Source: Obrimoposthia wandeli
Lineage: Eukaryota
Reading direction: 5' to 3'
Length of the DNA: 64,000 nt
NCBI GenBank assembly: GCA_977020255.1
Contig: CDROCS010000774.1
Coordinates: 372,001 to 436,000 of the forward strand
Below, one piece after another: positions 1 through 61,506 of the stretch. A program made the position numbers and the translations under genes. The first letter of the stretch is position 1; every line of letters starts with the position of its first letter. The notes below the pieces were generated by a model. It had not been told where the DNA came from. It saw nothing but the letters and a program-made list of their open reading frames with translations, and did not search any database.

Positions 1-441
1 GGTCGCTGGAACTATACATATCCGTCCTGGACATCCTTTTACACACATGATCATTACAGCTTTACTGTAGGATGTCTTGATTATTTCTAGGGTGTTGTCT
101 AGATTTCTCAAATGTAGATTATATTCGGATAATGTCATCATTTCAGCTTTACTGGTCGGCATGGCTTGTAGTACCAATCCAATTACTACTCCATAAATCA
201 ATCCTTGTGCAACGGTGCACAGGGCCTTGACTGACCTTTTGCAAAGGGTTTTAATTATCAATCGTTTGAGAGATATCTGTTTCTGATTAGATCGTTTTGT
301 TATCTGTCGTTGTTTTGACATCTCCTCGATTCCATTTCTTCCGATAATTAACTGTACCGGTTTACCTTGTATCGTCAACTTTCCGAATCCATTTTTGGCG
401 GACAAGCATGTTTTATGTCCTTCCATCGTTTCAATTATCAC
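1..441 (-). CDS. Open frame not listed in the ORF track (147 codons, no stop, runs off the window edge)
   Basis: Manual translation VIIETMEGHKTCLSAK...ALCTVAQGLIYGVVIGLVLQAMPTSKAEMM...CVKGCPGRICIVPAT has no stop codon. It starts where the 438-1175 ORF ends, with a 1-nt shift. Confidence 0.7.
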   Translation of the reverse strand, partial: MIIETMEGHKTCLSAKNGFGKLTIQGKPVQLIIGRNGIEEMSKQRQITKRSNQKQISLKRLIIKTLCKRSVKALCTVAQGLIYGVVIGLVLQAMPTSKAEMMTLSEYNLHLRNLDNTLEIIKTSYSKAVMIMCVKGCPGRICIVPAT

Positions 442-1175
442 TCTCTTACTTCCATACTCACGTGTTTTGATGACATCGCCATCGAATATATACGTTGGTC
501 CTTTTGTATCAGCATCTTTTGTATTTCCTTTACAACTCGTTTTCTTCGCTTGCATCCAGCGAATGTTGTTGATATTCGGTCAAGTGTGCGCTGTCGGTCA
601 GCTTCGTAATCTATTCGAAATTGATTCAGTATTCTGTTTTGTGGGTAAAATATCGCTTCATTTACTATGTTGTCCTCGATCCTTTCGTCTAGATACACAA
701 GCACTTTGTTCGTTGGTCCATTTGGTCTTTTCATCTTTACAAACTGAAATCTTTTACTGTCGGTTCTCATAGATCGAAGACATTTTCGGATGATCCACAC
801 ATCAATTAGTCCTAACAACACTAATAGCATCATCAGTGCCGGTGTATGGTACTGTGTGGTGTAGTTGTGGATTTCGTTGAACCAGGAACTATTTCCGTGG
901 TTGGAGCCTATCTCCTGTGCTCCCGTTATCGGCAGTAAACAACTTAACAAGCCTATCGCTAGCAATCTTTGGTATTGAAAGCTGGGCACTGTTGTTGTAG
1001 CTTCATTTGTTTCTCGTTGTTGCTTCCTCTTTTCGGTGTATTTTTCTATTTCTCGAACGAGTAACGGTTTGAATTCCGTATTTGGTCTATTCTGTTTTAT
1101 GTAGACCATCGCTTCTTCTGGCGTGTGACCATGGTACTCTACCAACAAGGATACACCTATGGTAGGCGCTAACAT
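438..1175 (-). CDS. Continuation ORF: C-part of pseudophosphatase plus two hydrophobic segments
   Basis: GTMLAPTIGVSLLVEYHGHTPEEAMVYIKQNRPN parallels GISRSATLVLAYLIKTRRMQVLEALKYLQERRS of DSP1. It joins the upstream ORF by a 1-nt shift in an A-run at ~1186. Hydrophobic segments LLAIGLLSCLLPITGA and ALMMLLVLLGLIDVWII. Confidence 0.75.
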   Translation of the reverse strand: MLAPTIGVSLLVEYHGHTPEEAMVYIKQNRPNTEFKPLLVREIEKYTEKRKQQRETNEATTTVPSFQYQRLLAIGLLSCLLPITGAQEIGSNHGNSSWFNEIHNYTTQYHTPALMMLLVLLGLIDVWIIRKCLRSMRTDSKRFQFVKMKRPNGPTNKVLVYLDERIEDNIVNEAIFYPQNRILNQFRIDYEADRQRTLDRISTTFAGCKRRKRVVKEIQKMLIQKDQRIYSMAMSSKHVSMEVRE

Positions 1176-3514
1176 CGTACCTTTTTCTGATATATCAGAA
1201 CGCCGTTTCCTTCTGTGACTTCAGCTTGGATGGTTTGAGTCAATTTCGTCAGATGTTGTTGTGCATCGTTTATTTCTCGATTGGAAGCGTGTATGTATCG
1301 AGTGGTGTCATCTTCAGTATTTTGACACAGACTGATTATTTCGTTTCCGACTTCAACAATGTTGATTACTCGGTTGATACTGTGGAACTTTAATCCAGCA
1401 GTATCTATATCTCCTGGATGACATAAAAATACCTTTGGCATTATCTGTGTAATTTTGTCGACTCCGGCTAAGAATAACCCGGTCAATGATAATGCTTGGA
1501 GGAAATTCTTTTCCTTTGGATCCTCAGGAATGTCGTCCATCCGTCTTTGTTCTTGCAACAGAAGTTGGTAATTTGCCAACTGTCCCAAAAAATTAAGATT
1601 TGGGTTTGCAATACTTCTTCTCTCCTGTAGGTATTTTAGCGCTTCTAGTACCTGCATTCGTCTAGTCTTTATTAGATATGCTAATACTAGAGTTGCTGAT
1701 CGAGAAATTCCTTTCTGGCAATGTACTAACACTTTTCCTTGGTTCCGGAGTTCTCTGTGAAGTATTTCGTTTGTTTCTACGAACCATTCGAGAAGATTAG
1801 CGTCCATTGAGTCTTTTACTCTTAATGTCATAGCTCTGATCGTCTGATATTGTGATTTGTGATTCATTGTAACGTTGATCACGTATGTTATCCCTTGTTC
1901 CAACAGTTTCTTTTCATCTGTTGCATCCTCCACATTTCCGAGGTATAACTTACCTGGAATGATCTCACTCATTGGTGGCATTAATTCTGACTCTTCAAGT
2001 TTTAGTCTTTCTAATCTCTTCTCTATTTGTTCGTCGATGTTGGATAGTTTCGCCAATTTCTTTCCTCTCAGCATTCGTATTGCTGGAGAGATATTCATCT
2101 TTGTCTCTGATGTCTGTTCCTTTGTTGAGTCTTCTTCCGATTCGGTCTCTTCTGCAGATTTAATTCGTCTTTCTTGTATATTCTGTTTCACGAATTCTAT
2201 GTTTTGTCTTTTTCTGCTCTCTTTAGCGAATTCAACCTCCATGGTTCTTCCGAATCGCTCTATTATGTTATCTTCGGATTCTGTTGATTCTGTATCGTTA
2301 CTTTCCGGTTCGCTGTCTTGACTAGACTCGCTCGAAGGGTATTCTGGTATGTCTGTCTGAACTGAAATTAATGAAGGGGTTAGAATAATTGGATTGATTT
2401 CCCCTTCGTATTTGTGAATCGGATACGGTATTACGCTATCTTTAAGTATTTCAACTTGGAATTGTGCTCCATAGCACATGACAATTGTTTCCAATTTACC
2501 CATGATGGACAATCCATCAAAATAGGTAACATTCAGCTTAGATATCGGTGTCTTCGCATAATTAATTAAGTTTACTCGTATCTCGGTTGATGATGGCCAT
2601 CGATTTTTTAGTAAAATTATAATTTCGTCGTTTATCGATGTAATTACACTTGGTGCGGATGATACTATTTCGGCATGATATTTTGGCTGGTTTGAAGTTG
2701 TTACTTGTTCTCGGATCATATTGATTCTTTGTGGTTTTTTATTTTTAGCTTCCCACTTCCGGTATCCGCTGTCAATGCGTAACTCTGCCGTTGCTTTGAT
2801 GATTTTATTGTTAGTCACTTCCGGATGGGTTGGCGAATGAAATCCTTCTATTACGCTCAACCTTACAGATACTTCCGTTTGATCTGTGTCTAACCGGTGA
2901 GATTCTGGTATACAACATACAATTGTCTTTCCATCAAAGTATTTGGTGTCCATCTGACAAATTATCTTTTCAGTGTCAGCGTCGATTAAATGGACTCTCA
3001 TGATATCTCTTTTCCCATGTGAATTACGTAATACCATTATTACATCGTGGTATTCTTGTTTGAGTCTTTTTGGTGTACCATGCAGTATGTGACCACCGGC
3101 CGGTTCTTTTTCTTCCTGACTGGCTAGTCCTGCTTCAGTACTGACATAGTTCTGCCATGCAACTATGTTTGGTGTCAATGTGATTTCGATTATCACTTTC
3201 TCAGTCGTAAACACATTGGAATTTTGATAAAGTGCTGCGACTAATGTATTTCCGTCGTAGTATGACACTCTAAGTTCGCACAGAAATTCGTTTGTCAGTG
3301 CATCTTTCACAATGACTTTTTTCGCCACATCTGTTGGTTGTGTTTTTTCGAAAACAACTATTATCTCTTCGTCTTCTTCTAATATCTCTTGTGGTGCGAT
3401 GTGTCGGATTACTTCCTTTTCCTCTTGGTACTTCATTCTGAGCATACCAATTCTCGCTGGTTTTTCCTCGCTACCACTCGTCATCATGTTTATGTAGTTC
3501 CGATCACTTACCAT
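1169..3514 (-). CDS. Post-integrase cargo ORF: 3 IPT/TIG-like repeats, dual-specificity phosphatase, N-part of a second phosphatase-like domain
   Basis: DSP motifs IIPGKLYLGN, GITYVINVT, general-acid D (VKDS), VLVHCQKGISRSATLVLAYL (1697-1723) and NPNLNFLGQL. Three repeats carry P..I....II and Y(Y/F)DG.T/S motifs. The frame is open upstream to ~3598. Confidence 0.85.
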   Translation of the reverse strand: MVSDRNYINMMTSGSEEKPARIGMLRMKYQEEKEVIRHIAPQEILEEDEEIIVVFEKTQPTDVAKKVIVKDALTNEFLCELRVSYYDGNTLVAALYQNSNVFTTEKVIIEITLTPNIVAWQNYVSTEAGLASQEEKEPAGGHILHGTPKRLKQEYHDVIMVLRNSHGKRDIMRVHLIDADTEKIICQMDTKYFDGKTIVCCIPESHRLDTDQTEVSVRLSVIEGFHSPTHPEVTNNKIIKATAELRIDSGYRKWEAKNKKPQRINMIREQVTTSNQPKYHAEIVSSAPSVITSINDEIIILLKNRWPSSTEIRVNLINYAKTPISKLNVTYFDGLSIMGKLETIVMCYGAQFQVEILKDSVIPYPIHKYEGEINPIILTPSLISVQTDIPEYPSSESSQDSEPESNDTESTESEDNIIERFGRTMEVEFAKESRKRQNIEFVKQNIQERRIKSAEETESEEDSTKEQTSETKMNISPAIRMLRGKKLAKLSNIDEQIEKRLERLKLEESELMPPMSEIIPGKLYLGNVEDATDEKKLLEQGITYVINVTMNHKSQYQTIRAMTLRVKDSMDANLLEWFVETNEILHRELRNQGKVLVHCQKGISRSATLVLAYLIKTRRMQVLEALKYLQERRSIANPNLNFLGQLANYQLLLQEQRRMDDIPEDPKEKNFLQALSLTGLFLAGVDKITQIMPKVFLCHPGDIDTAGLKFHSINRVINIVEVGNEIISLCQNTEDDTTRYIHASNREINDAQQHLTKLTQTIQAEVTEGNGVLIYQKKVRC

Positions 3515-3599
3515 TCGTGTAAGTTTAATGGTATTGGTATTCGATTTCGATTTCTGTGATCTTAACTCATATCGTGACGCATTATCTTTATTTGGTACT

Positions 3600-4670
3600 C
3601 AATTTGCATCGATTTGCATGTACAATCATCGGCTCCTTGTTCCGATTCTCCTCGTTGATTACTTTCAAATTTGTTGAGGTTGTCTGATCACCTTGTATGG
3701 TCCTTTGTATGGTCTGTGAAGTTTAAACGATAGACCTGGTTCGATGACTGGATAAAATATCATCACTTGATCTCCGACTCTAAATTCATGTGGTTTTGCT
3801 TTTTGTCGTATTGTTCCTTGTAACCTTCTTGATTGAATTTCAACTTCAATCCGGCTTTGGTCCAAGCATCTTGTAACCTTTCCTTCATGACGACAATGTA
3901 TTGTTCAGTTTCTAGGTACTGAGATGTTGGCTCGGTCCATTCCAGATCCATTGGCATATTGTTCTGTCTGAGATACATCAGATAGAATGGTGTGTGACCC
4001 GTCGCCTCTCGAACTGAATTCCTGTAAGCATATAAACATGAAGGTAATATTTATCCCAATCCTCTTGCTTGTCTGAGCAATAGATTGTACCATCATACAT
4101 AAAGTTTTATTAAACCTTTCCACCAGACCATCTGTCTGTGGGTGATATGGTGAAGTTTGTAACTTCATGATTCCGAATATCTTCGATACTGCTTTTATGA
4201 CTTCTCCAGTGAAGTTCTTACCTTGATCCGTTAACAATTTTCTAGGCACTCCGTATCGAAATATTATCTCTTCTACTAAGATTTGTGCTATTGTTTCAGC
4301 CTTCTGGTTCTGCATGGGATATGCTTCTACCCATCTCGTCATGTAATCCGTAAATACTATGACATACTTGTTTCCTTTACTTGATTCTCTCAATGGTCCC
4401 AATATATCCATCGCTGTGAATTCCATTGGTGCCAAGGGAACTGGCATTGGTTTCAACGGAACTTTAGTACGAGTTCCGGTGTCTTTTCTGGTTAAACATA
4501 CTTTACATTGTTTACACCATTGTTTTATGTCGTCTTCCATACCATCCCAATGGTACTTCTCTTTGATTCTGGCTATTGTCTTTCGCCCTGACAGATGTCC
4601 TCCTAGTGTTCCGTCGTGATACTGGATCATCACTGCTGTTTTCAATGACTTCGGAATTACTACTACTATC
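3600..4670 (-). other. Integrase (HHCC + DDE core + C-terminal GPY region; C-terminal part split by frameshifts)
   Basis: YHDGTLGGHLS..CKQCKVC; AMDILGPL, LTDQGKNF, YHPQTDGLVERFNKTL. Across frameshifts the sequence reads DWDKY-LPSCLYAYRNSVREATGHTPFYLMY, FRVGDQV, YKGPYKV and IVHANRCK. Confidence 0.93.
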
Positions 4671-7600
4671 TTTCCGACATTATTGACAATATACAAGATT
4701 CCTTCTTTTATCGAGTATTTTTTCGTCATTTCATCGTTTAGATCTCCTTTCACCAACAATTCTTTGATTAGACTCAGTTCTTCATCTTCTTTCTGTTCTT
4801 TGATGATCTCTTTGTCTATTTTACCCGTCTTTAGCAAAATCGTCAGTAGATTTGCTTCTCCTTTTTGGTCATTGGTTTCATCTTCTTCTGGAATTATGTT
4901 TCCTTTCTCGTCTACATTTGTCAATCTCGACAAACAATCTGCGTTGCCGTTCGACTTTCCGGTTCTATAACGGATTTCTAGATCGAATTCGGCCAATTTT
5001 AGAAACCATCTGTTTAATCTACTCATCTCATCTCTATGTTTATATAAGAACTGTAGTGGTTTGTGATCTGTATACAGGAATACTTTTTGTCCTAGCAAAT
5101 AGTGTCTGTACTGTCTACATGAATACACTATGGCTAGACATTCCTTTTCGATAACAGAGTATCCTCTTTCGGCTCTGTTTAATCCTCTACTCGCATACGC
5201 GATGACGTGTTCTCTTCCTTCGTCATCCTCTTGTCCCAATACTGCTCCTACAGCATAGTTACTTGCATCTGTCATGAGTATGAACTGTCGGTTTATATCT
5301 GGGAACGCTAATATTGGTGCTTTTATCAATCTTTCTTTTAAATGCTCGAACGCTTGTTGGGCTTCTTTTCCCCATATGAACTTCTCATCTTTTCTCGTCA
5401 ACTTTCTCAATGGTGTTGCTATATCTGAAAAATGTTCAACAAATCGTCTATAATAATTCGCAAGACCTAAAAAACTCTGTATCTCCTTAACAGTCTTTGG
5501 CGCTAAATGCGCTTTTACTTTCTCGATCTTTGCCGGATCAGGTCGAATGCCTTCTTTCGATACTATATGTCCTAAAAATGTTACTCGCTCTTTAGCCCAT
5601 TCGCATTTTGTAGGTTTAACTTTTAATTTAGCGTTTTCCAGTCTTTTAAATACAACTTCAAGATTTTTTAAATGTTCTTCGAACGTTTTCGAAAATATTA
5701 TTATGTCATCAATATAAACCATCGTGTTTGCACACGATGCGAGTACAAAATTCATGCAACGCTGAAATGTTGCTGGAGCTCCTGTCAGTCCGAATGGCAT
5801 CTTTTCGCATTCGTATAATCCATCTCCGCAGGAAAAGGCTGTTTTGTGTTTATCCTCTTCCTCTATCTCGATTTGCCAGTATCCACTCTGCAAATCCAAT
5901 GTCGTAAAATAATCTGAATTACCCAATTTATCGAGCATCTCTTCGATTCTAGGTAATGGATACACATCTTTTCTTGTGATCTTGTTCAGTTCTCTGAAAT
6001 CTATACAGAATCTCATTTTCCCATCCTTCTTTTTTACCAACACCACAGGTGCTGAGAATGGCGAAAAACTCGGTCTAATTACTCCTGTTTTAGACATATC
6101 TTCAATCTGACTTTTTACTTCATCTTGTAATTGTAATGGTACTCGATATGGTCTTCTTCTGACTACTTTGTCTTCTGTCAGTGGTATTGTATGTTTTATG
6201 ACAGGTGTTTCTCCTATGTCATATGGATTTTTTGCAATTACTTTCGGAAATTTATGTATTAGATCAAGTAATTGTTTCTTTTCTCTAGTTGTCAGTCTTT
6301 CTGATTGGATTACTATTTCTTCGTAATCGTTCGTATCTTTATCGAGTTTCATAGCACACACGGTGGGATTCTCCATCTGTGCTATCTTTCCCAACCTCAT
6401 TCCTCTGTATAATAGAATGTCATTGTTGGTTGTATTCATCAGTCTAACTGGTATTTTGTGGTTTTCGATCAGGCATACTGTACTCACAACTGGTAATTCG
6501 TATTTCTCTATGAAATCTCGTGATGGTTCGAACACAACTGGTCCTTTATCTTCTGATAATGTGTGACCTTGAATAAGAAATTGCGATCTTTTACCGATTT
6601 TTATAGGAATCTCTATAATTACATCAATTTGGTTTATTTGTCTGTTTGATGTGCTATCCTTCAATCTTGGATCTTGTAAATCAATACTTATCCCTTTAAG
6701 TTGTGATAGTACATCCATTCCTAAAATTGTAGGTTCAGGACATTCTTTCATGATTCTAACTGGTATAGTGATCGTATTACGTCCAATTATAAATGTACAT
6801 GGTAATATTCCCGTCACTTTTACAGGGTCTCCATTGACCGATACCAAGAATTCATCTGGTTCTGCCATTGTTCGTTTCTGTTCCTCTGTCAAACAGTCTT
6901 CACTTACTATCGAAGCTACAGCACCTGTATCAATTAAGGCTTTTACTCTTAAATTATTTACTCTAATGATAGCTGCTGGTCGCTGTGCTCCATTTATGTT
7001 TCCCATATGGTATATTGTATTTATCGAATTATTACACTCTGTCAGTCCACTTCCTATGTTTGGATAGTGAAATCTAATGTTTCTCACTTGTCGATCTATT
7101 ATTCTTCGACAAATCGGACATGATACCATTTCATTCGCACATCTCCGACATGTTCTGACATGTCCGCATGGTAGAAAGGCAACTTCTATTTTGTTGACCA
7201 TGCAAACTGCGCATTCCGGATCTTCTAGTACGTATTCTAATTCATTTATGTACTCTTTCTCTTTTGTTTCGATTGTACTGTCATCTTTATCTCGCAGTAA
7301 TTCAAAAATCGATCCGTATCCGTTTCGCGTAGTTTTTATTTTTAATTCTACCAATTCTCTAATTCTTTCTGCTTCTTTTGGATATAACCTTCTCACGAAT
7401 GACACTACCGGTGTGTCTTGTTGAGCCAAAATCTCTTTTCGTGTGATTTGGTATTCGATTATACATTCGGTTTTCTGTTCTTTTTGCTTTATTTTATTAC
7501 AAAATTCGCAAAATTCATGATGTAAAATTTTCTTAGGTAGCTCAAGAGTATATCTGTCGATAATTCGTTCTTTTTTACACTTGTGGCATTTAATTACGTC

Positions 7601-10600
7601 TTTACCATCCTTTTTTATAGCAAAAAGTCCCTTTTTTGCCAATTTTTTAAGTCTTGGGTCTTCGAAAGTTATTTCTCGATACTGTTCGTCACATTCGTTC
7701 ACTTCTCGCATAACTTCGAATATATCTTCAATTCGACTATTCGTTATTACTCTACCTGTTATTAGAGCTGATTCTCCTTTTGGAATCCCGTCACTGTAAT
7801 CGAAATCGGGTGCTTTTCCCGTTTGGATTTCTGGTACGTTTGACGTTTTCAGTTTCAAAAGAAATGGACAATTTGGTGCATCTTTTTTATGACGTCTCAT
7901 TGGGTTTTCATTCTTTTCCCATTCTCTGAACTTTACTCTACACCATACGCATCGTACTACTATCTCTTGACCATAACTGCTTGTCGCATTTAACATTTCT
8001 AACCCTGATCTTGCCATTTTACGTGCCATTCCTTTTGAATAGTACTGTTCTAATATATTTCGTCTCTTTCTCTCGAATCTCATGGGATCCCTTTCTGACA
8101 GATTTACATATGTTATTTTTCTCCTCGTCGTATCTTGTGGTCCGAAATTTACATTTTTGTAGTGAAGTATCGACTTTGCTAGCGCTTCCTGTTTTCTGTC
8201 TGGGTACGAACCTCCCATACGGAACGTAGTGCATTTTTCCTTTTCGACTATGGGTCCTCTCAACATTTTTATCTCTCTCACTGAACTGTCATTCTTATAA
8301 CTCTTGTTGTTTGGTAGTATAATTATTCCTTCAAACATTCGTATTACGTCCATCCCAATCATGACTGGACTACCGCAATCTGTGAATATTCTAGCATTTA
8401 ACTGCAATGCTCTTCCATCGATATTCAATGAACATTTTAGTGTTCCTTCCGACACTACATCTGTACCATTCACGTTAACAAATGTCTGTTTTCTAGGACA
8501 TACTTCTCTTAATTCTTTTGATGACAAGATTTCTTTACTCAGTACTGATACTGCAGATCCGGTATCAACTTCGGCAAGATATTCTCTTCCGTTCAATGTT
8601 ACTGCTACTTGTGGTGGAGCATTTGGATTCTCATTTGATATCCTAGATTTCAGAATTCTTCTGGAATTATCTTTTTTGTCTTTTTCCTCTGCTTGTGGAA
8701 TCTCACTGTAGCTCACTTTAGGCCATCTTATCATTAGGATGCCTCTCTTGAACTTTTCCTTTTCCTCCTTTAGTTCCTTCATTGGATATAGGTTTAACGC
8801 TACTTCTTCCTTGTCTGGTAATGGAATCTTCGGTTTTCCTGGTATCTTTGCATATACTTCTGGACTATCATTATCGTCGTCGTTGTCGTCTCGATAGTTT
8901 CTTGGTTCTCTCATCATGGTTCTCGTTTGGTGTTGTTCCTTCTTGAGGGCTCGCAACTCGTTCTCGTGATGATGGTGCATTAGATATTTTGCTAAAAATG
9001 GAAAACATCCAACTATAAGTTGCCAGGTGATTCCGGTTATCCTGTATAAACTATACGTAGACAACACCTGGGCTATAATTACCTGCACAAATTTAATTAT
9101 AACATAAATACCTATGATACCCGAAAATAATTGTCCTAAAACAAGGAATTTCCCCCACATCTTTCTAAGTGTCTGATGTGCTGCTTCCTTGAAATGACTT
9201 GGCGATAATAACATATCGAAATTCGCATATCTCGCTCCTGGCGGTAATGCTCGATGTACCATCTCCGTAAATACTCTGGCTCTTCTTACTGGAAACATTA
9301 TTTCGTTCCACGCCGCTTTTAAATCTCTTTCATTGTACAATCCTGCGTTCTCCATATTTTCCACCGCTTGGAATTTCATTTTACCTTTAAGATTCGTCAT
9401 TCTTATCATCGCTGGGGTTGTCGTTGGCTTTCGATCAGGTAACGTTATCCATAGATTATTCGTCATCTGATATTCAGGTGCCATTATATTAGAGCAGCTG
9501 ATTTCTTTAGTTGGAGTGTCTTTTGGAAGTAACATTCTCGTGATTGGCTCAACAAAAAGATCTTTTAAATTATACGTTACTGCCAATTCGCTCGTACATC
9601 GATCTGTTTTTCTCAACTGTACCTCTACTTTATTACACTTGTAAGTATACAATACTTCTCCCATGGTTTTAGCAAATACTCCTTCATCCAAGGGTAATAA
9701 TGGTGCTACCATGTCTGGATTCGTAATAGCTAATGCTAATTTTGTTCTTACGATCTCTTTGTTTAGCTGGCAATCTCTTTCGATCATCATCCGATATAAC
9801 TGTTCCATTTGCATCAATCCTTTATGATAATAGAAATCAATTTTATTATTAAAATACGTGTGTAGCTGCATATCTTTTGGTTTTAGCTTGGTTTCTGCCA
9901 ATGCTATTGCTTCTTTAGACAAAACTATTCCTGGATAGTTTGTAGTACTAACAGTCATTCCGCATCGCGCTTTGTTTCTCTTTTTAATAAATATCAATCC
10001 TTCTTCTATTGATGTTGCCATTAACAGTGTAGGTGTTTTTGTCATTGGGATTGGTCTTGTTTCATTGAGCAATCCTTTTCCAACTTTATTATACAGGAAT
10101 CCTTCTCCATCTTTATTATACAGGAATCCTTTTATTTTATTAAAGCTAATCTCTTTCAAAAATACTAAAGAGCATTGCTTCGGATTTATGTTATACACAA
10201 TTGTGGATTCGCCTGTAAAACAAGATGTATCTGTCATTTTACATTCTGGATACTTCATCATTAGTTGTGTCTTTTTATCAAAATTGGCGGTCCATGTTTT
10301 TAATTCGATTTTGTAAGTTACATCCATTACTAACTCAGATACTTTGGTTCCACGCACGTTTTTTGTTTCTCCGTCACAAGATCCATCAGCCCATCGTTGT
10401 CCGACTCTCGTGACTGTTTCGTATCGTCTCACTCCAATTTTTACTTCAGGTTTGTAATTCTTGTCTACCTCTATTGTTCCCGTTCGAAATGCATCTTCGC
10501 AATCTCTCGGCAAAACCTTATGTGCCTTGTACGGTGTGGTAGGTGTGATTTCTGACATAAAACTTCTATGGCCACAATAGAATTCGTGATAACTTGAATG

Positions 10601-13600
10601 GATTGAACATTCTTTCACTTCTACTTGTACTTTATCAACATCCTGATACACAAAGTAGTTTTCAACACCTTGAACTTCTAGTTTTGACGGTTGTGATTCT
10701 GGACAGTCTTCGCTGTCAAGCAGTGAATACTTTTGTCCCATCTTTGGTATGCTACAGTCATATGCTATCAATCCTGATGCCTGTTGCATTCCCATAAACA
10801 TTACTAACATCATCATCATCATTGTGGTGGACATATTTGGTTGATTGTTTCTCTCTTTCGGACGGTATTGTTTATTTTCCTTTTGACGATTCTCATGACA
10901 TTGTTCGTCATCGTCTTCATTCATTTCCAAAATGGTTTTAGCGTAGTCACTTAATTTTGCCCAACCTCCGTTTTCGTCAATTCGTCTCTGTAATACATTC
11001 TCTATCAAATACATCGCTTCATTTATTCCTTGTTTGACTTCGTGAGGTTGGCTCGTTCGTTCCGTCAATTGGAAACATAGATATGTGATCGCTGTAATTA
11101 ACTTTTTATTTGTAGTCTGGTTTCCACATAGTCTCGCTAAAACTTCACCGTCATAAAATCTATCTATCGATGCATGGTATACATGATTCGCGGTCATTCT
11201 CTTTACTGCAGACATCTGTGATCTGACTGCTTTAGTCAAATTGTCTGTTATATCGGTTGTTTCATCTCTGTACATTTTAAACAACTTCGGCTTCACTTGC
11301 CTGAGAATTCCCGTAAGTATATCTTTACTACTTGGAGTTTCCGAATTCATATCACCTCTGATATCTTCATTCCTCTCTGCACTATACTGCTCTAATGACG
11401 CTGCTAACTGTCCAATACTTAGATGTCTCTCTTCATCAGTTTGTGGTGCTGTTAGAACATTTCGTAATATACTTTCGCCTTTTCTAGGTCTTCCAGGTCC
11501 TCTTCGAAAATACTGATACTCAGTTTGATCCTCTCCTGGATCATACGTTTCACCATTATACTGTATCTCTTGACTTGGTCCTTCTTCATGGCCAATCTCT
11601 TCACTTTGTCGCATCATTTGCTCTGCTTGTCTATCTTTGTATGCGGCATGCCAAATTGGTGAATCCAAATCTACAATCTCGGAGACTTCGTCTTCTCCTA
11701 CTAGTTGGGTTACGGTTTCGTTTTGTCTCACTTGGTTAGCTGTATCCGTGACTTCATCTTGTCTGATTGGAATTATATCTGGTTCTGGTGGCACCTCGAC
11801 CACTGGAGTTGTCAACTCATTTTCTAAATTCATGTCTTGTAATTCAGCTACGTACGGTTCTGGTGTGGATGTCTTGTTCCAAGCTTCAGCTACATCATTA
11901 TCTCCGCTTTCGCTTGAACTGTCTAAAATTTCTATAGGCGTTTTTATCATTTCTAACGCAGAATTCAATATCTCGGATAATCCTTCATTATCTACTAACT
12001 CTTGACGTCCTACAGTGATGACATCAATTTTTTCCTCTAATTCATTTCCTATCGGATATCCACACTCGACTGGTACGTCCTCATCATCTAGTGATCTCCC
12101 TTTATAATGGAACAACATATTCATTCCATCAATTTCAAGTTTCTCGGCCAACTTTTTCCGAATCGTTTTCATTGTTTGATACACGTTAAGTTTTTCATGT
12201 ATTATCTGTCCGGAAATTAATCGAAGTGAAATTTTCATCGTTCCTTTTTGGTTTGATCTCTGTACATAACGACCATAACCTTTCAGTAGTCCTCGGGGTA
12301 CTTCTTTGTAACCCAAGTTATCATGACTATGTTTAACCAATTCTGCACGCACTTCTTCCAATCGGTGCACTTTAATTGTTTGCAATTTGGCCAAAACTTC
12401 TGGAGCTTCACTCGTTTCATCTAACGGTTGATTCAACGTCTCCTTAGCTTCACTAATTATCTTTTTTACATCTTCCATACTCGTAGCATTTCTCGCTGCT
12501 TCCACATGATCAGTCATAGGTTGTGCGTTACACGTTTTCTCTATTGGTGTCTCATACGCTTCTAGTATTCTATTCATTAAATCATTCATCTCTTCTCTCG
12601 AGTGTAGACTTTTCTCTTGTTTCGACAACGTAGATGAATTCGCCATCTTTGTATGTGGTGAATCTTTAATTATTCCCAACATTCGTTCAAATTTACTATC
12701 ACTATCTTCAAAATCTATTTCGCGTCGAAGCTCGGTCTCGCGATTCCTATCACTGTCATCGCTTACATAACTAAAATTTCCTTTCGGTTTCGGCGAACTC
12801 TCTCGACTATTTGTCTTGTCGACATTATTATTATTATATCTACCAGAATTATTATATCTCTCAGCTCCTTGCTGTCCTACGTAATTATTGTATCTCTCAG
12901 CTCCTTGCTGTCTGTCTGCATAGTTATTGTATCTACCTGGTGACTGTTGTCTATCTGTATACTGATTATTCAGTCTCCATGGCTGTGGAGTATATCCACC
13001 ACCTCTATTCCATGGCGGAGGTGAATTATATCCTCTATAATTATTTCCAAAATTATTATTACCGAAATTATTATTTCCAAATCTGTTAGCTCCGAACTCT
13101 TTACTTCTCGTACAATCTCTCGAATAGTGACCCATTTGTTTACACGTGTAACACATTATTCTCCCTCGAATATCTATCTTATTTTGTTCATCTTCGAACT
13201 GTACTCGACGACTATTCTGTCTATTATCATAGCGTCCTCTAAAATCATTTCTTCGGAAATTCGATTCAAAACCGCTTCCTCGATTATTGAATCTTCCGTC
13301 ACTATTTCCTGCATTATTTCCAAATCGAGAGTCACTTCGCTCTCCTCTGTTGGCGTTATAATTCCTATCGTCTCCTCTCCAAGGTTGGCGATTTCCGGAA
13401 TTATCTCTATTAAATCTATTCCTGGAATCATCTCTATTTCTATTCCACGAATCATTATTATTTCTACCTCTTGAATCATCTCGATTCCTGTTCCAAGACT
13501 CACTATTATTTCTACCTCTTGAATCATCTCGATTCCTACTTCGGAAATTATCTCTATTTCCGTTACTGGATTCATCTACTTTTTCAAACTTATTTTGTCC

Positions 13601-14434
13601 ATAATTTCGATTCTGAAAATTACTCGGTTCTGTTTTATTCACGAAGACCTTTGTCTTATCGTCGTCACCTGCAGTCATTGCGTAGATTGCCAATGCTGCA
13701 TTATTTTTTATATTTTTCTCAATCTCTCTCGCCTTTCGTACGGCGTTATCAAAATCATTTGTATCCGATACTGCTAATAACACTTTAATATCCTTTTTCA
13801 ATCCTCCTCTAAATATATCTAACAAGACCTCTGCCATTTCATTTTGGTTCCGGTCATTTTCCGCTGCTTGTGCTTCTGGAGCTACAGGATTACCGTCCTG
13901 ATTTCTCATTATTCTTCTTGGGTACGCTCTTGCGGCCAAGGTTCTCAAAACATACGCGTATTCATTCACGCCTTCATCATGTTTCTGTTTCCGTTCTCTC
14001 ATGAGTCGCTTATTTACTTTGGCTAAGTCTCCTAATACCAATTTTCCAATAAAAGCATTTTCCAACGTTGGCCAGTCTAAACGTTCTGCTTCTGTCAAAT
14101 GTTTATACACTTCAAGTGCTAATCCGGTTAAATGTGCCTGTACTCTGACACATTTTTCTCTATCGTTCCATCCTTGAACATCTGCACAACTCGAATATTC
14201 TGCGAGGAAGTCACAAATACTTTCCTCATCTCCTTTAAACTTTGTAATCTGCAATGATCCTGAAAAATTGGGTCTCAACGTCGCATTTAAAGCTTGTGCC
14301 AACTGCTCGGCATTCATTTCACCTACATTATTTCCTGCATTAATATCTGGTGGAGCTCCTTGGTGAGCCATATCGTCAATTATATCGTCTTCAATTATTC
14401 CTTCAATATTATTTACTTGAACTTCTTCAATCAC
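3905..14434 (-). CDS. Gag-cargo-Env-Pol polyprotein (3509 aa in ORF track; first ATG at 14371; true C-terminus continues past frameshifts at ~4069/4046)
   Basis: Uninterrupted 10.5 kb ORF with recognisable Gag, Ubl, Bcl-2-like, glycoprotein, two proteases, BIR/RING, RT, RNase H and integrase motifs. Confidence 0.95.
   Translation of the reverse strand: [3509 protein letters not shown]
4920..5290 (-). other. RNase H (Ty3/Gypsy type)
   Basis: [50 protein letters not shown]. Confidence 0.95.
5560..6245 (-). other. Reverse transcriptase (Ty3/Gypsy type)
   Basis: [69 protein letters not shown] (YIDD at 5705-5716), FLGHIVS. Confidence 0.97.
6700..6985 (-). other. Retropepsin aspartic protease 2 (canonical Pol position)
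   Basis: [15 protein letters not shown] (DTG at 6923-6931) and ILGMDVL motif. Confidence 0.9.
7100..8075 (-). other. Inhibitor-of-apoptosis module: BIR1, degenerate BIR2, C3HC4 RING
   Basis: BIR1 (7860-8075): MARSGL..VRCVWC....[21 protein letters not shown]. BIR2 (7500-7690): LAKKGLF....DVIKCHKC...HHEFCEF. RING (7100-7215): [36 protein letters not shown], typical of IAP RINGs. Confidence 0.9.
8330..8615 (-). other. Retropepsin aspartic protease 1
   Basis: [22 protein letters not shown] (DTG at 8558-8566) and C-terminal VMIGMDVI motif. Confidence 0.85.
8980..10834 (-). other. Chuvirus-type envelope glycoprotein (signal peptide, Cys-rich ectodomain, C-terminal TM)
   Basis: Signal [21 protein letters not shown] followed by [15 protein letters not shown], C......[21 protein letters not shown], CQL.....[21 protein letters not shown]..R....C..EL.[9 protein letters not shown] and TM [22 protein letters not shown]. 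This motif series is the one I recognise from Jingchuvirales glycoproteins and their retroelement captures. Confidence 0.85.
10935..11325 (-). other. Bcl-2-like domain (BH3-, BH1- and BH2-like segments)
   Basis: [24 protein letters not shown] is in register with Bcl-2 [35 protein letters not shown] resembles [25 protein letters not shown] resembles LHTWIQDNGGWDAF (BH2), with BH1-BH2 spacing within about 2 residues of Bcl-2. Confidence 0.65.
11477..11506 (-). other. AT-hook motif
   Basis: [10 protein letters not shown] matches the (K/R)-G-R-P-R-K AT-hook core. Confidence 0.65.
12010..12238 (-). other. Ubiquitin-like domain within the polyprotein
   Basis: [52 protein letters not shown] aligns gap-free by eye to ubiquitin residues 1-52 (M.I......G..I........T......K...K..I..........G..L.D). 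There is no C-terminal di-Gly. Confidence 0.75.
13110..14371 (-). other. Gag region with retrotransposon-gag core and CCHC zinc knuckle
   Basis: [32 protein letters not shown] and [19 protein letters not shown] (gag core / major-homology-like region). [14 protein letters not shown] = CX2CX4HX4C at ~13113-13157. Confidence 0.9.
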
Positions 14435-14807
14435 TTCTGGATTGGCAACTTCAATCCCCTCTGGGTTTTGAACTTCAATATTATCAATTTCTTCTGGGTT
14501 TATGTCACCAATTAACTCAGTCAGATCAAAACTATCGGTTGAAACTGCTGATTGATTTACGTCTCTTTCTGATACGTTTTCTTCGACTCTAGTCTTTTCT
14601 GTTACTTTGTTATCTGTTTGGGGAACCTGTTCAATTCGGTTAACTTTATTATTATTTGTCTCTTCCTTGGGAATCTGGCTTTGTCTTCTAGTATTAAACG
14701 CGGGTCCTTTTCTATTATCCGTTGTCTTATCAATTATGTATTCGTTTACGATATCAATTTACTTATTATTTTTATCTTATTTCACAATTCTTATTTTACG
14801 ATTTTTT

Positions 14808-15010
14808 ATCTCTTTAATTAGTTCGAGGACAGAGTCTCCCGACTTAACCTATTCAATTAATTACTTCGAGTATCAATCCACTCGATTCTCACTTTATCAA
14901 ATTTATTTACGATTTTATCTTTTTAATTAGTTCGAGGACAGAGTCTCCCGACTTAACTTATTCAATTAATTACTTCGAGTATCAATCCACTCGATTCTCA
15001 CTTATAAAAT
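14808..15010. repeat. Two tandem copies of a ~109 bp unit in the element leader
   Basis: gttcgaggacagagtctcccgacttaac at 14821 and again at 14930. Confidence 0.9.
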
Positions 15011-15016
15011 TTACTG

Positions 15017-15360
15017 ACTCGAGGAACAAATCCACTCGACTTCTCAAAACTTATCAAATTCTTAACTTCGAGGAACAAATCTACCCGATTTCTCAAAAAC
15101 TTATCAAATTCTTAACTTCGAGGAACAAATCTACCCGATTTCTCAAAAACTTATCAAATTCTTAACTTCGAGGAACAAATCTACCCGATTTCTCAAAAAC
15201 TTATCAAATTCTTAACTTCGAGGAACAAATCTACCCGATTTCTCAAAAACTTATCAAATTCTTAACTTCGAGGAACAAATCTACTCGATTTCTCAACACT
15301 TATCAAATTCTTAACTTCGAGGAACAAATCTACTCGATTTCTCAAAAACTTATCAAATTC
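15017..15360. repeat. 50-bp tandem array (6 full copies plus 1 degenerate) in the leader
   Basis: cttaacttcgaggaacaaatctacccgatttctcaaaaacttatcaaatt recurs at 15061, 15111, 15161, 15211, 15261, 15311. Confidence 0.95.
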
Positions 15361-15645
15361 TTCTGAAACTTATTCTCAATTGTCTATATTCTTCTGCTGA
15401 AACTTATTCTCAATTTATCTGAACTTATTCTCAATTTATCTGAAACTTATTCTCAATATCTGAAACTTATTCTTAATATCTGAAACTTATTCTTAATATC
15501 TGTAACTTATTCTTAATATCTGTAACTTATTCTTAATATCTGTACTTATTCTATTTACCTGAAACTTATTCTCAATTATCTGAAACTTATCCGAACTTAT
15601 TCTATTTACCTGAAACTTATTCTCAATTATCTGGAACTTATCTAC
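15361..15645. repeat. Degenerate ~20-bp tandem array (ctgaaacttattctcaat...) in the leader
   Basis: More than ten diverged copies of tctga(a/t)acttattct(c/t)aat are visible. Confidence 0.85.
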
Positions 15646-15670: not shown

Positions 15671-15689
15671 ATCCTCACTCGGGGCACCA
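15671..15689 (-). promoter_or_regulatory. Primer-binding site complementary to the 3' end of elongator tRNA-Met
   Basis: Plus strand ATCCTCACTCGGGGCACCA vs metazoan elongator tRNA-Met 3' end AUCCUCACACGGGGCACCA (18/19, recalled sequence). It lies 8 nt inside the LTR end. Confidence 0.8.
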
Positions 15690-16178
15690 CTTTAATATGT
15701 TGGGGTTTCTATACGAAACTTTGTATAGATCCTCTTAATGTGCGGAGGGCCCCAACGTGAGTTCGATTAGAAGCAGGTCTTAAAGTTGGTCGTGGCCTAC
15801 TTAGTGTTATGGTTGCCTAATCTCTTGTACTATCTGAAGGTATTTGATTAGATGCCTCTTAGTCTGAAGGGTGCAAAACAACTTGTTCTAATGTAGGAAA
15901 TTGTTTATTTGAAATTCACGTAACTAACACAACAATACGTTTATGTACGTATTTCTAAAAAGTATGATAAAATTCCTAAAGGACTTCTGTAAGTCTCTAC
16001 AAGAAGTGGGGATGAACCACGTATCGATTTTACGTTCAGGTGATTAAGCTTTTAGGTTTATTCTTCTTACTTAGGTTGGTTAATCTATAACGCAACTCTC
16101 TTAAATTTCTTTGCTCCTACTTCTTATCTCTAGATAAAGTTTCTTGGTTCTTTAACTCTATCTGCTGTGTGTTTGACC

Positions 16179-16585
16179 CCGAATTGTCCACTGTGAACAA
16201 TGGGTCTCCTAAAAACCTAATTGTCGAGATGACAATGAAAAACTTACTCCTAATTGTCAACTATGGACAATGAACGAGCCGAATTGTCAGCTAGGGACAA
16301 TGAGTCTTACCGAATTGTCAACTAGGGACAATGAGTATTTATCCGAATTGTCAACTAGGGACAATGAATCTTACGGGCAAAAAGTCTGGGTATGATTCCT
16401 AATTGTCGCTGGGGACAATGAATAAATGGCTGATCTTAATTACCAACTAGGGGCAATGATTTAGTTAAAGAGTCGGAAATCCTAATTGCCAGCTAGGGGC
16501 AATGAATATGTTTAAAATATGTTAAACAACCTAATTGCCAACAAGGGGCAATGAATTTATCCTAATTGCCAACTAGGGGCAATGA
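16179..16585. repeat. 11 interspersed ~25-bp palindromic units within the LTR
   Basis: CC(G/T)AATTG(T/C)C-N5-7-G(A/G)CAATGA cores separated by variable spacers. Confidence 0.9.
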
Positions 16586-16653
16586 ATGGTTTAGTTGGTG
16601 TTCTTACCTATATGTTACTCGAGATTCCGGTACAGGATCCGTATGTAGCTTGG

Positions 16654-17240
16654 GAGAATGGCTTATTTTCTCCTGATCGCAAATATAGATTGAGAATGGC
16701 TTATTTTCTCCTGATCGCAAATATAGATTGAGAATGGCTTATTTTCTCCTGATCGCAAATATAGATTGAGAATGGCTTATTTTCTCCTGATCGCAAATAC
16801 AAATTGAGAATGGCTTATTTTCTCCTGATCGCAAATACAAATTGAGAATGGCTTATTTTCTCCTGATCGCAAATATAGATTGAGAATGGCTTATTTTCTC
16901 CTGGTCGCAAATACAAATTGAGAATGGCTTATTTTCTCCTGGTCGCAAATATAGATTGAGAATGGCTTATTTTCTCCTGATCGCAAATACAAATTGAGAA
17001 TGGCTTATTTTCTCCTGATCGCAAATACAAATTGAGAATGGCTTATTTTCTCCTGATCGCAAATATAGATTGAGAATGGCTTATTTTCTCCTGATCGCAA
17101 ATACAAATTGAGAATGGCTTATTTTCTCCTGATCGCAAATACAAATTGAGAATGGCTTATTTTCTCCTGATCGCAAATATAGATTGAGAATGGCTTATTT
17201 TCTCCTGATCGCAAATATAGATTGAGAATGGCTTATTTTC
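16654..17240. repeat. 38-bp tandem array, 15 full copies plus a partial copy, within the LTR
   Basis: gagaatggcttattttctcctgatcgcaaatatagatt from 16654 to 17224, i.e. (17224-16654)/38 = 15. Variant copies carry tacaaatt or ctggtc. Confidence 0.97.
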
Positions 17241-20200
17241 TTTGGTTGATATTGAAAATCTAAATTATCGATTAAGTTGGCTGCATTCACCAATCTCTAC
17301 TTACCAATTCTCCGATTCCTGGGATATTGTGCTGTTCTGTTTAGTTTCTCCGTTTTCTTTGTAGGAGATATCAGTGACTTATATAGTTGCCTATTTGCTG
17401 TCAATCAGCACTCTTGACTTCTCTTCTCGGTCCGGGCTTGGCGGCAGCTGAAACTGCTAATGCTAGAAATCCACGTGAGTCCGGGCAGCTGCTAAATTGA
17501 ATTAATTAAATTGCACGTAAATGTGCTTACTTTTGACGTTTGTAGATTTCCTTTCTGCTGACGTTAGCAGATTATTTTTCCCTTTTTTGCTTTTTGCACT
17601 TTTGGGTTAATTAATTTAACTTTTATACATTTCACATTATACACGACCTTCGTGGTCCTCCTAATTTTTACCCTAAATTCCACTAATTTCAATTCTAAAA
17701 CTAAAATTAATATTTTAATTTAATTTTCAACCTTGCTTTCAAGGATTTTTATTTTAGTATTTAATCGACTAAAATATTTAAATTTCTTAATTCTCAAACC
17801 TAACACTAACAACAGTCATATCAAAAAGATTTATCTAAAAATAATTTGCCTTACTACTGAAATAACTACAATGCTAACGCATGTTATTAAAACTTGATTT
17901 AAAAAATTATTTTATATTTAATATTTTAGCTTAAAAAATTTAAACAAAGCAGACAAAATTATATTCAAAATATTTAATGAAGCTACATTGGCTACTTATG
18001 ATCAAAATATTCTCTCACAAAAACCAAGATATTTATATGATATTCTGGAGCCTGGTGATGTGACGATATATATGCATCTTAGGAACAACGTTGACGACTG
18101 TAGTTAAGGAATATTTGAAATTTATCTTCTTAATCTTTTTAAAAATCAACCGATGAATGTAAAAAACTGTTACAATGTTGATAAATTCAAGAAGCAATTA
18201 TTTAGAAAATATTACGAAGTATAATGTAAAACTAGAAGCACTTTTAAGTATTAATTCATAGATTTATTACATATTAGTGCTATATTAAATATATTATTGT
18301 TAATATACCGTTACTATGTACATAAATCTAATTATTCAAATCTATTAAAAACCATTTCTAAACGTTTTGAAAAGGAATGCAGTTTCTGATACGAAATGAT
18401 AACTGATTATATAATCAACCGATACACATTTTAGCATACGAATCTGAATTTATTTGGCTTTTACTTAAAGTAAACTACGTCTTTCATTCCTAAGAATACT
18501 TCTTCAAGTACTTACTCGTGATAAATGAAATATGATCCTGTTCTAAATACTCGTATCAAGTACTGTTTTCAAACTGTTTTTCGATTAATAGATTATAGCT
18601 CAAAATTTAGCCACTAATAATTAAACAATAAATTAATTCCGATGTAGACAGTACAAGTAAATCATTGAAATATTTAATGGTATAACCTTTATAACTATCA
18701 ATTAATTATTTTCGAGTAGGCCATAATATCCTACTAAATATTACAACATATATTCTTTCTATCATGTTCATTTTTGTGATGCAATTAAGCTAAAATTTGC
18801 AGCAATCTTATTTTGAAGATAATATGGGTGTGCAATTATGAAGGCAGAAGTTGTGTCAGGAAATAAAAGAATAACTTAATTGATTACATCATTGATAAAT
18901 ATCAATTTGCGAAGGTGTAAGTAATATCAAATTGTATTAATCGAATTAATATTGTCCAAATTGTTCTAGATAATTTGAAAAATTATAATTTGATAATTCT
19001 AACAGATCGCTAGATAATTTGAAAGCTTATTTTTTTAAATTGGCCTAAATAAGCTGTGGTCAATATAAAAATTTGCGTAAATAGTTCCAGGTAAAAAGTC
19101 ACAAAATTCGATTTCTGACGAGTAAATCTTGAGTAAAGTTTTGGTCCCACTAATTGACTTAACATACCCCTGCGTCATGAACTTTGGTTCAAACCTTTAC
19201 AGCAAGGGTTAAAGTGCAAGATACTTGACCTTTGACCCTTGCTGATAAGGGTTTGACTCTCAACTCATAGCTCATGACTTATGGGGTCCCGTTGAGCTAT
19301 TGAGCGAGAACAGACACTTTACACTACTTCCGACCATTACTGAATTCGATCATTTTTAATTGATATGATGTATGTTTGCTCAAATTTATTCAAATGAAGT
19401 TGTCATCAAACATATTCTCGTGTTTGAGGGTTCAAAATGTTGTAGTTGTCTAAGAAATTTACTTTCTTCCACTATGCATCAAAAAAATTACAAATATTAA
19501 AAGAAGTAAAAGTTATGTGTATTAGTTTCGTCTAAACATAACCGTAAAAATATTTTTTGCAACGGTTCTGCTCTATTATTTCACCAAGCAACTAACTACA
19601 AAATATCATTATTTTCAAATTCATACACTACATTTTAATTCACACCAACTGAAATCACAAAATTACAATCAAAACCATTTTCACAATAAGCATTACACAC
19701 GCGTGGAAATTAACAAAGCACTTAAAAGTGCTCAAATTTGCCTTATCAGAAATTAATTATGAACATAATGCTATCAGCAAAACAAATATTTGTCATGTAA
19801 ATAAATACACAGAATAACTAAACACAGAGCAACACCATACTTCAGTATTTCTTGATAGTTTTTAAACTATCATTATGTAACAACGTTTTGTAAGCTTGCT
19901 GATAAAAAATAAAACGTCGAATTAAAATTTTATGGCAAAGAAATGACAAACGTTAAATAGTCAAAAGTTTCAAATAACTTAAAAATCAAATACGTTATTG
20001 TCTACAAAATAAAGAGAATTGAAATTCGAAGTAAAAGTAGAATTCTCAAATTCCCATTAAACAAGCTAGTGATAATTCTGATAAATTTCATTCTGATAAA
20101 TATTTTAATATTTTAGTTCGTCATTTTATTATTCTGATTGCTTACTTCTGTTCGAGTTTTTGATTTATTGTTGTAGCTGTTTTGATAGAGAAGAGAAAAT

Positions 20201-31109: not shown

Positions 31110-32310
31110 GCTTGCACTGACTGCAATCACAATGCCCCGTCACAAACATATCTCCCAGCCATTCCCACGTCAGCCCCCTTAACGCAATTCGAGTCTATAT
31201 ATGCCGACTACTTTGATTTTGCTGGAAACCACTATCTAGTCATTGGTGATAGACTATCCGGTTGGACCGAGGTGTTCCGTTACCATCCCGGCTCTTCCCA
31301 TACTGGTAGCGCCAGCCTCATCGGATCTCTTCAATCAGTTTCTGCAACCTTCGAGGTGCCAGCAGAACTCTCCAGCGATGATGGACCAGAATTTACAAGT
31401 AGCTCAACTCAGGATTTTTTCGCCGATGGGATGTCAGCCATCGCGTATCCTCCGCGTATCATCAACAGTCTAACGGTAGGGCTGAAGTTTCCGTAAAAGC
31501 CACAAAACGCCTCCTCAGATCTAACACGGGTACCACCTCAACAACGACCGATTCTTTCAGGCGCTCTTGTAACAACAGAACACTCCTGATCCCGACTACA
31601 AAATATCAGATCGTATTGGGAAAGTCCCCGCGAGACTCAATGTCTTTGGGAATCGACTGGAAATATTCTCCAATCCACATATTAAAATTACATGGTGAGA
31701 GGCCTGGTCTCTGAAAGAATCATCTCTGCGCGCATGGTATACACGATCACAGGAGACCCTTGATGCAAGCACCAGCCCACTACCACCCCTTCATGTTGGT
31801 GACAAGTGCTTTGTTCAGAATGGCACGGGTAACCATCCCAAACGATGGGATAGAACAGGCATTGGGACAGAGGTGTTAGACCATGACAAGTATTGCATCA
31901 AAATCGATGGCTCAGACCAAGTCACTATTAGAAACCGGAAATACCTCTGTCAGTTCACTCCCGTCTCCACAGATAAAGTGAGGTTCTATCTGCTTTCATT
32001 GTATGAAGTGCATGCCAGCCACCCCAAAACCTCACCTCCGAGAAATAATCCACCAGCGATCATGACGTTGAACCAATAATCAGAGATGATGCCAGCATTG
32101 CAATCAGCTGCAGAATCGTCGTCCTCAATACTGCCAACATCAGTACTAGCCACTCCTTTTAAAATTCATGATGAGATCCCACCAACCCTGTCAATAACCC
32201 TGATATAATCGGCAACTCCAGGCCCAGTCGATCAATCAACAATTTGTTTAATATTTGATTAGAATATTGATCGACAATAAATATATTTGTTGAAAAGACT
32301 CTTTACTTAC
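31110..32310 (+). mobile_element. 3' fragment (integrase plus partial LTR) of the short-LTR Gypsy family
   Basis: CTDCNHNAPSQ..IYADYF..GNHYLVIGDRLSGWTEV, SSDDGPEFTS. Aligns to 60640-61380. LTR piece atattgatcgacaataaatata..gaaaagactcttta at ~32263-32306. Confidence 0.85.
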
Positions 32311-60700: not shown

Positions 60701-61506
60701 GTTTCGTCGGATGTTTTCAAGCTGTTTTTGCAACCTTAGGAGTGCCAATAGAACTCTCCAGCGATGGTGGACCAGAATTGACAAGTAGCTTAACTCAGAA
60801 TTTTTTCTGTCGATGGGATATCAGCCACCGCGTATCCTCCGCCTATCCTCCGCTTATCATCCACAGTTTAACAATAGGACTGAAATTGTTGTAAAAGCCA
60901 CGAAATGACTCCTCAGATCTAACACGGGTACTACCAGTAACCTAAACAACGATCGATTCCTCTGGGCGCTCTTGTAACAGCGGAACACCCTGATACGACT
61001 GTGAAATACCACCCTCTCAGATCGTATTTGGAAAGCCCCTGCGAGACTCAATGTCTTTTGTGAATCGACTGGAAATTTTCTCCAATCCACATATTAAAAT
61101 GACATGGTGAGAGGCCTGATCTCTGAAAGAATTAACTCTGCGCTTCATGTTATACTCGACCAGAAGATACCCTTGATGCTAGCACCCGCCCACTGCCAAC
61201 ATCAGTACGAGCCACTCCTCTTAAAATTCATGATGAGAACTCCCAATCCTGTCGACAACCCAGATCCAATCGAAAACTCCACGCCCAGCCGATCAACCAA
61301 CAATTATCACCCCAACGCGGCCCACCGGACTTCTCGCCGTACTGCCTGGCAGGAATCCAGTGACTGGATATTAAACTTTTGAGCCCGTGACAACAGTCAC
61401 GAACTGAGGGATGAAGAAGTTTGTTTGAATAATGTGTTTAGAAATCACATATTTGATTTGAATATTGATCGACAATAAATATATATATTTTAAAAGACTC
61501 TTTACA
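57770..61506 (+). mobile_element. Degenerate Ty3/Gypsy element with very short (~95 bp) LTRs
   Basis: LTRs TGAAGAAGTT..tcttta(a)CA at 57770-57864 and 61412-61506, with a purine tract before the right LTR. Broken gag (NAFEQRW..QFFQCA..LADALLK), RT (RCVDDAI..KFQF..VEFAGF), RNase H (VTDHKPL..NLAADATSR) and integrase (SSDGGPEL). Confidence 0.88.

Follow-up and report, generated by a model that had tools for sequence, protein, structure and literature searches.

An in-frame class III envelope glycoprotein in a Burro-type giant Gypsy element of Obrimoposthia wandeli

Introduction

Giant Gypsy retroelements with an envelope glycoprotein (Env) encoded inside the coding region have been described in planarians. 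In Burro1-4/GYPSM1 of the Dugesiidae, one giant open reading frame (ORF) carries Gag, a Ubi/SUMO-like domain, a Bcl-2-like domain, an in-frame Env, protease (PR), BIR, RING, reverse transcriptase (RT), RNase H (RH) and integrase (IN), and the planarian Burro/GYPSM1 ORF of 4,873 aa holds the Gag, Ubi/SUMO-like, Bcl-2, Env, BIR and RING modules (Arkhipova and Yushenova 2019, PMC6431247). The Burro Env, lying between Bcl-2 and protease, matches mononegavirus glycoproteins and was described as the first case of an env inserted in frame after gag and before pol (PMC6431247); BURRO1 is furthermore transcribed and PIWI-controlled (PMC8532177). Here we analyze an element of this type in a 64,000-nucleotide stretch of Obrimoposthia wandeli DNA (assembly GCA_977020255.1, contig CDROCS010000774.1, positions 372,001 to 436,000 of the forward strand), hereafter the window.

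Env proteins of the type of herpesvirus glycoprotein B (gB) occur in Gypsy elements of many phyla, for which an ancient env origin has been argued (Chary and Hayashi, PMC13524379). The same study reports a GAG-ENV-POL order in Platyhelminthes, Nematoda and Bryozoa, where it is non-monophyletic, and lists nine flatworm gB-type elements, six of them from Schmidtea mediterranea. These GAG-ENV-POL HSV/gB-type errantiviruses share with the element described here a Gypsy Pol and a gB-type Env upstream of Pol, and the Env of Smed_errantivirus_1 has, as judged by eye, the same cysteine pattern (PMC13524379). That work differs in covering gene order and phylogeny, and since the sections of its text consulted make no mention of in-frame fusion, frameshifting or splicing, polyprotein processing does not appear to be treated there (PMC13524379).

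More distant parallels are found among BEL/Pao elements. Anakin is likewise a retroelement with an RNA-virus-type glycoprotein, a chuvirus G, but belongs to the BEL/Pao superfamily (PMC7642597). Atlas virus combines a single Gag-Pol-Env polyprotein with an RNA-virus-type glycoprotein, but is a BEL/Pao element with a class II Env; as its Env is C-terminal, nothing must return to the cytosol (PMC9094657).

Env lies in one frame with Gag and Pol

The window carries, on its minus strand, a Gypsy insertion of 23,488 bp with a 4-bp target-site duplication on both flanks, whose two long terminal repeats (LTRs) differ at only 6 of 2,032 aligned bases (99.7% identical), four of these mismatches falling inside a 38-bp tandem array. 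TG...CA LTR ends, target duplication, tRNA primer site, PR-RT-RH-IN order and a Ty3-type RT place it in Ty3/Gypsy (Metaviridae), and the best solved relative of the RT is the Ty3 enzyme (E 8e-85; runner-up 1e-47). The host element is young and very abundant; its Gypsy nature had been proposed in a preliminary description of this DNA.

Its polyprotein frame (Table 1) encodes, in order, Gag, a ubiquitin-like domain, a Bcl-2-like domain, Env, protease, BIR, RING, a second protease, RT, RNase H and integrase. The Bcl-2-like match is stronger in the relatives P0002 and P0004 (E about 1e-3), and a 191-aa stretch between PR and RT, at the place of the Burro dUTPase-like domain, gave no Pfam match.

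The preliminary description had set a complete glycoprotein of about 620 aa, with signal peptide, conserved cysteines and transmembrane segment, at 8980..10834, in frame between gag and pol. The protein is indeed there and measures 618 aa. It opens with a hydrophobic stretch resembling a signal, its ectodomain has 14 cysteines and a single N-glycan sequon, and near the C-terminus lie an anchor of 19 residues (Kyte-Doolittle hydropathy, KD, 2.32) and a weaker second segment. The reading frame is 8981-10834 on the minus strand, so that the earlier coordinate 10834 is correct and 8980 falls one base outside. The in-frame position also holds, with the amendment that BIR/RING and two proteases stand between Env and RT; the downstream Pol is present as PR, RT, RNase H and IN, but is incomplete in the window copy, where the frame breaks in the integrase core.

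Table 1. Features of the O. wandeli element (window positions unless stated otherwise)
Feature	Position	Strand	Basis or remark
5' LTR	15698..17805	-	2,108 bp, TG...CA ends, 38-bp tandem array
Primer-binding site	15671..15689	-	complementary to tRNA-Met(CAU) across 19 nt
Single polyprotein frame	3905..14758	-	stop-free, 3,617 codons, broken within integrase core in window copy
Gag: capsid region and CCHC knuckle	13109..14371	-	Retrotrans_gag E 0.012 (below cut-off); zf-CCHC E 7e-5
Ubiquitin-like domain, weak match	12059..12226	-	PF00240 E 0.062 (below cut-off)
Bcl-2-like domain, weak match, immediately before Env signal	10961..11149	-	PF00452 E 0.044 (below cut-off)
Env glycoprotein	8981..10834	-	618 aa, residues 1309-1926 of the 3,617-codon frame; Pfam PF24664 Monjiviricetes_fusion E 2.4e-91
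Internal signal peptide and predicted signal peptidase site before mature Env	10772..10834	-	hydrophobic core kept in sequence-divergent relatives; cleavage inferred
Env ectodomain, class III (gB / chuvirus G) fold	9152..10771	-	profile match, model, fold search
Transmembrane anchor (segment A)	9062..9118	-	hydrophobicity
Segment B, kinked, weakly hydrophobic; predicted on membrane face, not crossing	8981..9034	-	hydrophobicity and model
Aspartic protease 1	8345..8608	-	profile match; catalytic motif intact
IAP-like cassette: BIR, weak second BIR, RING	7091..8029	-	BIR and RING above Pfam cut-offs
Aspartic protease 2	6701..6967	-	profile match; catalytic motif intact
RT, RNase H, integrase	4139..6037	-	Ty3/Gypsy order
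Post-integrase frame with dual-specificity phosphatase (1565-1948)	1169..3598	-	DSPc E 3e-34
3' LTR	L023:4318-6379, left of window		LTR alignment

As in Burro, a giant ORF has Env in frame between the Bcl-2-like domain and protease, with the Ubi, Bcl-2-like, BIR and RING cargo in the published order, and the family runs to thousands of copies (PMC6431247). The element differs from Burro in its length (23.5 kb vs >30 kb), in a single CCHC match vs two or three, and in the absence of a MATH or ankyrin match from the window copy in a Pfam search (PMC6431247). Two proteases, a post-integrase phosphatase and three RING-H2 ORFs are further differences; they are unnamed in the text of PMC6431247 on Burro, although domain labels in published figures may cover the extra protease or the phosphatase. 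The D. tigrina element likewise has no MATH in ORF1 (PMC6431247). In line with the D. tigrina case, and given the lack of MATH and ankyrin and the 23.5-kb length, we class the element as Burro-type and not as a member of Burro1-4. The resemblance also suggests a planarian host.

Env has a class III fusogen fold

The preliminary description had called Env chuvirus-like, and both the PF24664 profile match and a fold search bear this out. A monomer model built on 122 sequences (pLDDT 91.4, pTM 0.70) matched herpesvirus gB in the PDB (best E 8.9e-13, TM about 0.4) and, among BFVD entries, glycoproteins of chuvirus type (best E 9.9e-44, TM up to 0.67). A sequence search of the PDB with the ectodomain gave no match, the gB link coming solely from the fold search. 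On this model, Env is of the class III fusogen type (gB, chuvirus G) in both fold and conserved cysteines, a class III fusion fold being one of the checks put forward in the preliminary description, and it is a putative membrane fusogen. A short tandem duplication at about 10080-10130 falls in the only low-confidence loop of the model; one of 18 copies has a 27-nt gap within Env, which may correspond to the absence of that duplication.

The Env fusion is a family trait and Env is under purifying selection

In the 1.35-Gb genome, a 14-mer of the primer site occurs 5,598 times, an Env motif 6,355 times and an RT motif 5,887 times, whereas the control patterns are absent; these exact-pattern counts may take in sister families. 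A low Gag motif count (1,270) raised the idea of Gag-less or Gag-swapped copies, which was rejected: an R/K polymorphism explains the count, and the capsid is the same in 12 of 12 fetched copies. Identity is 99-100% across all 78 Env hits scored; an open frame of at least 3,000 codons is present in 13 of them, three reaching 4,599-4,749 codons vs 4,873 and 5,140 aa in Burro (PMC6431247). The junctions were checked in the 20 best-hit copies, selected by Env protein score: 17 have the Bcl-2-like motif in frame with Env, and 19 have protease 1 in frame with it. The Env fusion is a family trait.

We then determined the variation within Env in 20 copies chosen by another region, 18 with full Env and two without. 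The 18 full Envs are 97.1-99.0% identical to the window copy. Variants shared by at least two copies comprise 52 synonymous and 21 nonsynonymous changes (pN/pS 0.11), and private variants 50 and 62 (pN/pS 0.35; Fisher p 5e-4 vs shared). Among 17-19 copies, shared synonymous/nonsynonymous changes number 19/1 in the Env tail, 13/0 in protease 1 and 15/0 in the Bcl-2-like domain, all of them more constrained than the linkers (12/12 and 6/8); the ubiquitin-like domain has 6/1. An earlier count of 83/7 among the best Env hits was discarded as biased by selection on protein score, hence the recount on copies chosen otherwise. Env and protease 1 are under purifying selection, and the pattern of shared variants in Env indicates that the lineages that spread kept Env under selection.

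These data also dispose of the view that Env was joined to the frame by faulty assembly or by a dead passenger insertion. The many frame breaks among copies would fit such an origin, but the Env junctions are open in nearly all copies checked, the same fusion is found in relatives at 29-43% identity from other records, and Env is under selection; we consider this explanation refuted.

The polyprotein-type Envs form one group

A full library search with Env returned 1,329 matches at E 0.001 or better, and its nearest relatives, at the 29-43% identity given above, are polyproteins with Gag upstream and/or protease-RT downstream. In an unrooted FastTree of 124 rows, from which 30 of 153 profile hits were dropped for low coverage or long span (P0017 included), the 15 polyprotein-type Envs cluster together (local support 99) and away from free-standing glycoproteins of about 650 aa; three of the 15, tagged 'solo' by a crude rule, are in fact polyprotein fragments. 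P0025, a G fused to a Pao integrase, is placed elsewhere in the tree.

The tree, unrooted and unnamed, gives no donor direction. The preliminary description had proposed a new lineage of independent origin, which is not supported: the layout was published for Burro in 2019, and a separate recent capture from a chuvirus cannot be read from an unrooted tree. The Env feature is real, young, abundant and under selection, and its layout is not new.

Deepest in the polyprotein Env group is P0018, a compact Gag-Env-PR-RT-RH-IN relative of 2,146 aa with no Pfam match for the cargo domains, which suggests that the in-frame Env may have preceded these domains. P0009, an Env-PR-RT-IN polyprotein, is labelled as a protein of a Flavobacteriaceae metagenome-assembled genome and probably represents eukaryotic DNA within a bacterial bin.

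Predicted topology returns Pol to the cytosol

An Env inside the polyprotein would require, as the preliminary description pointed out, that the chain be threaded through the endoplasmic reticulum (ER) and Pol be returned to the cytosol. All relatives examined keep a hydrophobic signal-like segment, despite differences in its sequence, and this segment ends before a conserved AYDC-type start. Among 112 aligned rows, segment A reaches a KD of 1.6 in 101 and segment B in 22 (medians 2.0 and 1.3). Rough insertion energies, computed with the Hessa scale and our own weighting for 10 of the 15 polyprotein-type sequences (the five without anchor motif being left out), range from -0.5 to 1.9 for A and from 3.4 to 7.2 for B, and the tail after B holds no further hydrophobic segment in these ten. 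In the model, a near-invariant Gly and a Pro interrupt segment B, which is left as one short helix and one polar helix. The best reading of these predictions is two crossings, by the internal signal peptide and one anchor, which would leave Gag and Pol cytosolic and Env luminal.

We considered whether Env might serve as an intracellular membrane scaffold that keeps Gag and Pol, together with the Bcl-2/IAP cargo, at the ER without forming infectious particles. Env precedes Pol in the polyprotein and must be translated first, and infectivity is not shown for gB-type errantivirus elements in the sections of PMC13524379 consulted, both of which suit a scaffold. A mere tether would, however, not need 540 folded residues, and the full class III ectodomain, the conserved cysteines and the strong purifying selection make a purely intracellular role improbable.

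A model for polyprotein production

We consider it likely that the class III Env of this Burro-type giant Gypsy element, in one frame with Gag and Pol, is made within a polyprotein that an internal signal peptide leads into the ER and one anchor brings out again, leaving Pol cytosolic. The processing steps that we infer are as follows. The internal signal peptide would direct the ribosome to the ER co-translationally, and signal peptidase would cut before mature Env, so that the Gag-Ubl-Bcl-2-like part stays membrane-tied via the signal; hepatitis C virus (HCV), in which the capsid ends in the envelope signal peptide at the core-E1 junction, offers an analogy from an unrelated system (PMC5402940). 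Segment A would halt transfer and segment B would rest on the cytosolic face. Pol would at first form a greatly extended cytosolic tail on Env, to be released by the element's own protease(s). Gag, Env and Pol could then gather on the same membrane and give rise to enveloped particles that carry the element from cell to cell, such as out of the soma into stem or germ cells.

An alternative is that the single DNA frame yields unequal products from spliced or subgenomic RNAs, namely Gag alone, Gag-Pol skipping Env, or Env-Pol. Particles usually require far more Gag than Pol. A precedent exists in foamy virus, whose Pol comes from a spliced RNA (PMC7828637). Conversely, the frame is unbroken at both Env junctions (17 and 19 of 20 copies), and Env and RT motif counts are similar. 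Moreover, in contigs of two runs (one sample, run kind unspecified), none of the 15 best-supported joints skips Env, with 210 weaker joints outside this count; this speaks weakly against packaging of a spliced form. On balance, we regard unequal RNA products as unlikely.

Several points nonetheless weigh against the threaded polyprotein. Its topology derives from hydrophobicity scales, one used with our own weighting, and from a monomer model without membrane, and segment B reaches a KD of 1.6-1.8 in some relatives. The frame of the window copy is interrupted in integrase, as are the frames of most copies at one place or another. The literature examined reports neither particles nor fusion activity for Burro. 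Finally, equimolar Gag and Pol from one frame would be uneconomical, which hints at control at the RNA level.

Accessory features of the element and its surroundings

Two intact-looking aspartic proteases bracket the inhibitor of apoptosis (IAP)-like cassette; relatives P0004-P0008, P0011 and P0014, among those compared, have between one and three downstream of Env, with an additional protease-like motif past integrase in P0007. A literature search for duplicated proteases in gypsy elements gave no match, which is weak evidence. As a candidate cleavage site, the motif I-x-M-[M/L/I] at domain borders was rejected: chosen post hoc, it is enriched only in an 809-aa frame (4 hits, shuffle mean 0.24), with no enrichment in the long frame or in two relatives.

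Past integrase (438-3598 and L023:6648-10000) lie the dual-specificity phosphatase, a second phosphatase-like stretch and more frames bearing signal or transmembrane segments, and the three RING-H2 ORFs stand ahead of the 3' LTR. Integrase is in one frame with the post-integrase region in 13 of 20 other copies, and with the phosphatase in six of 20. At the other end of the frame, the pre-capsid region (14279-14758) is highly variable among copies L064-L075, with best pieces at about 54-96% amino acid identity, as against mostly 97-99% in the capsid; copy L067 has a divergent block before and within the ubiquitin-like domain (55-57%).

The spacer between LTR and primer site is 8 nt (15690-15697), a gap wider than usual, and no polypurine tract was evident by eye adjoining the 3' LTR (L023 near 6380-6400). 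Tandem arrays with units of about 109, 50 and 20 bp occupy the leader (14804-15640), and the 38-bp array the LTR (16502-17355). Genes for the priming tRNA-Met occur in tandem arrays of about 284-bp spacing (L076). Elsewhere in the window, this family has left an older, decayed piece of gag (26885-27731, 75-84% DNA identity), and two related remnants of a different retroelement show weak integrase matches (58201-61143 and 31246-31731).

Implications

With the layout already published, the discovery value of this locus is low. What is added here is the class III fold for a Burro-type Env, the topology argument, and population evidence that spreading lineages need Env.

Under the threaded-polyprotein model, signal peptidase cleavage before Env would mean that no Gag-Pol fusion survives. 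The Env tail would then have to bring Pol into particles, or else RNA would, as happens in the unrelated foamy viruses, an analogy only, in which Pol is packaged without a Gag-Pol fusion (PMC7828637). A loss of the Gag-Pol fusion was not found stated for Burro or gB-type errantiviruses in the consulted sections of PMC6431247 and PMC13524379. We tentatively put forward, as a possibility, that Burro-type elements are enveloped retroviruses assembling in a flavivirus-like manner, in which host signal peptidase yields membrane-tied Gag and an Env bearing the whole of Pol as its cytoplasmic tail, and Pol is packaged via Env. If so, Env-tail packaging of Pol would make the envelope obligatory and explain the strong selection on Env across about 6,000 copies, and the extra proteases beside the Env tail would release Pol at the membrane. 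Such packaging would then add to the two known modes by which retroelement particles acquire reverse transcriptase, the Gag-Pol fusion and that of foamy viruses, a third one, and would bear on how elements of this kind spread in an animal whose stem cells supply both soma and germ line.

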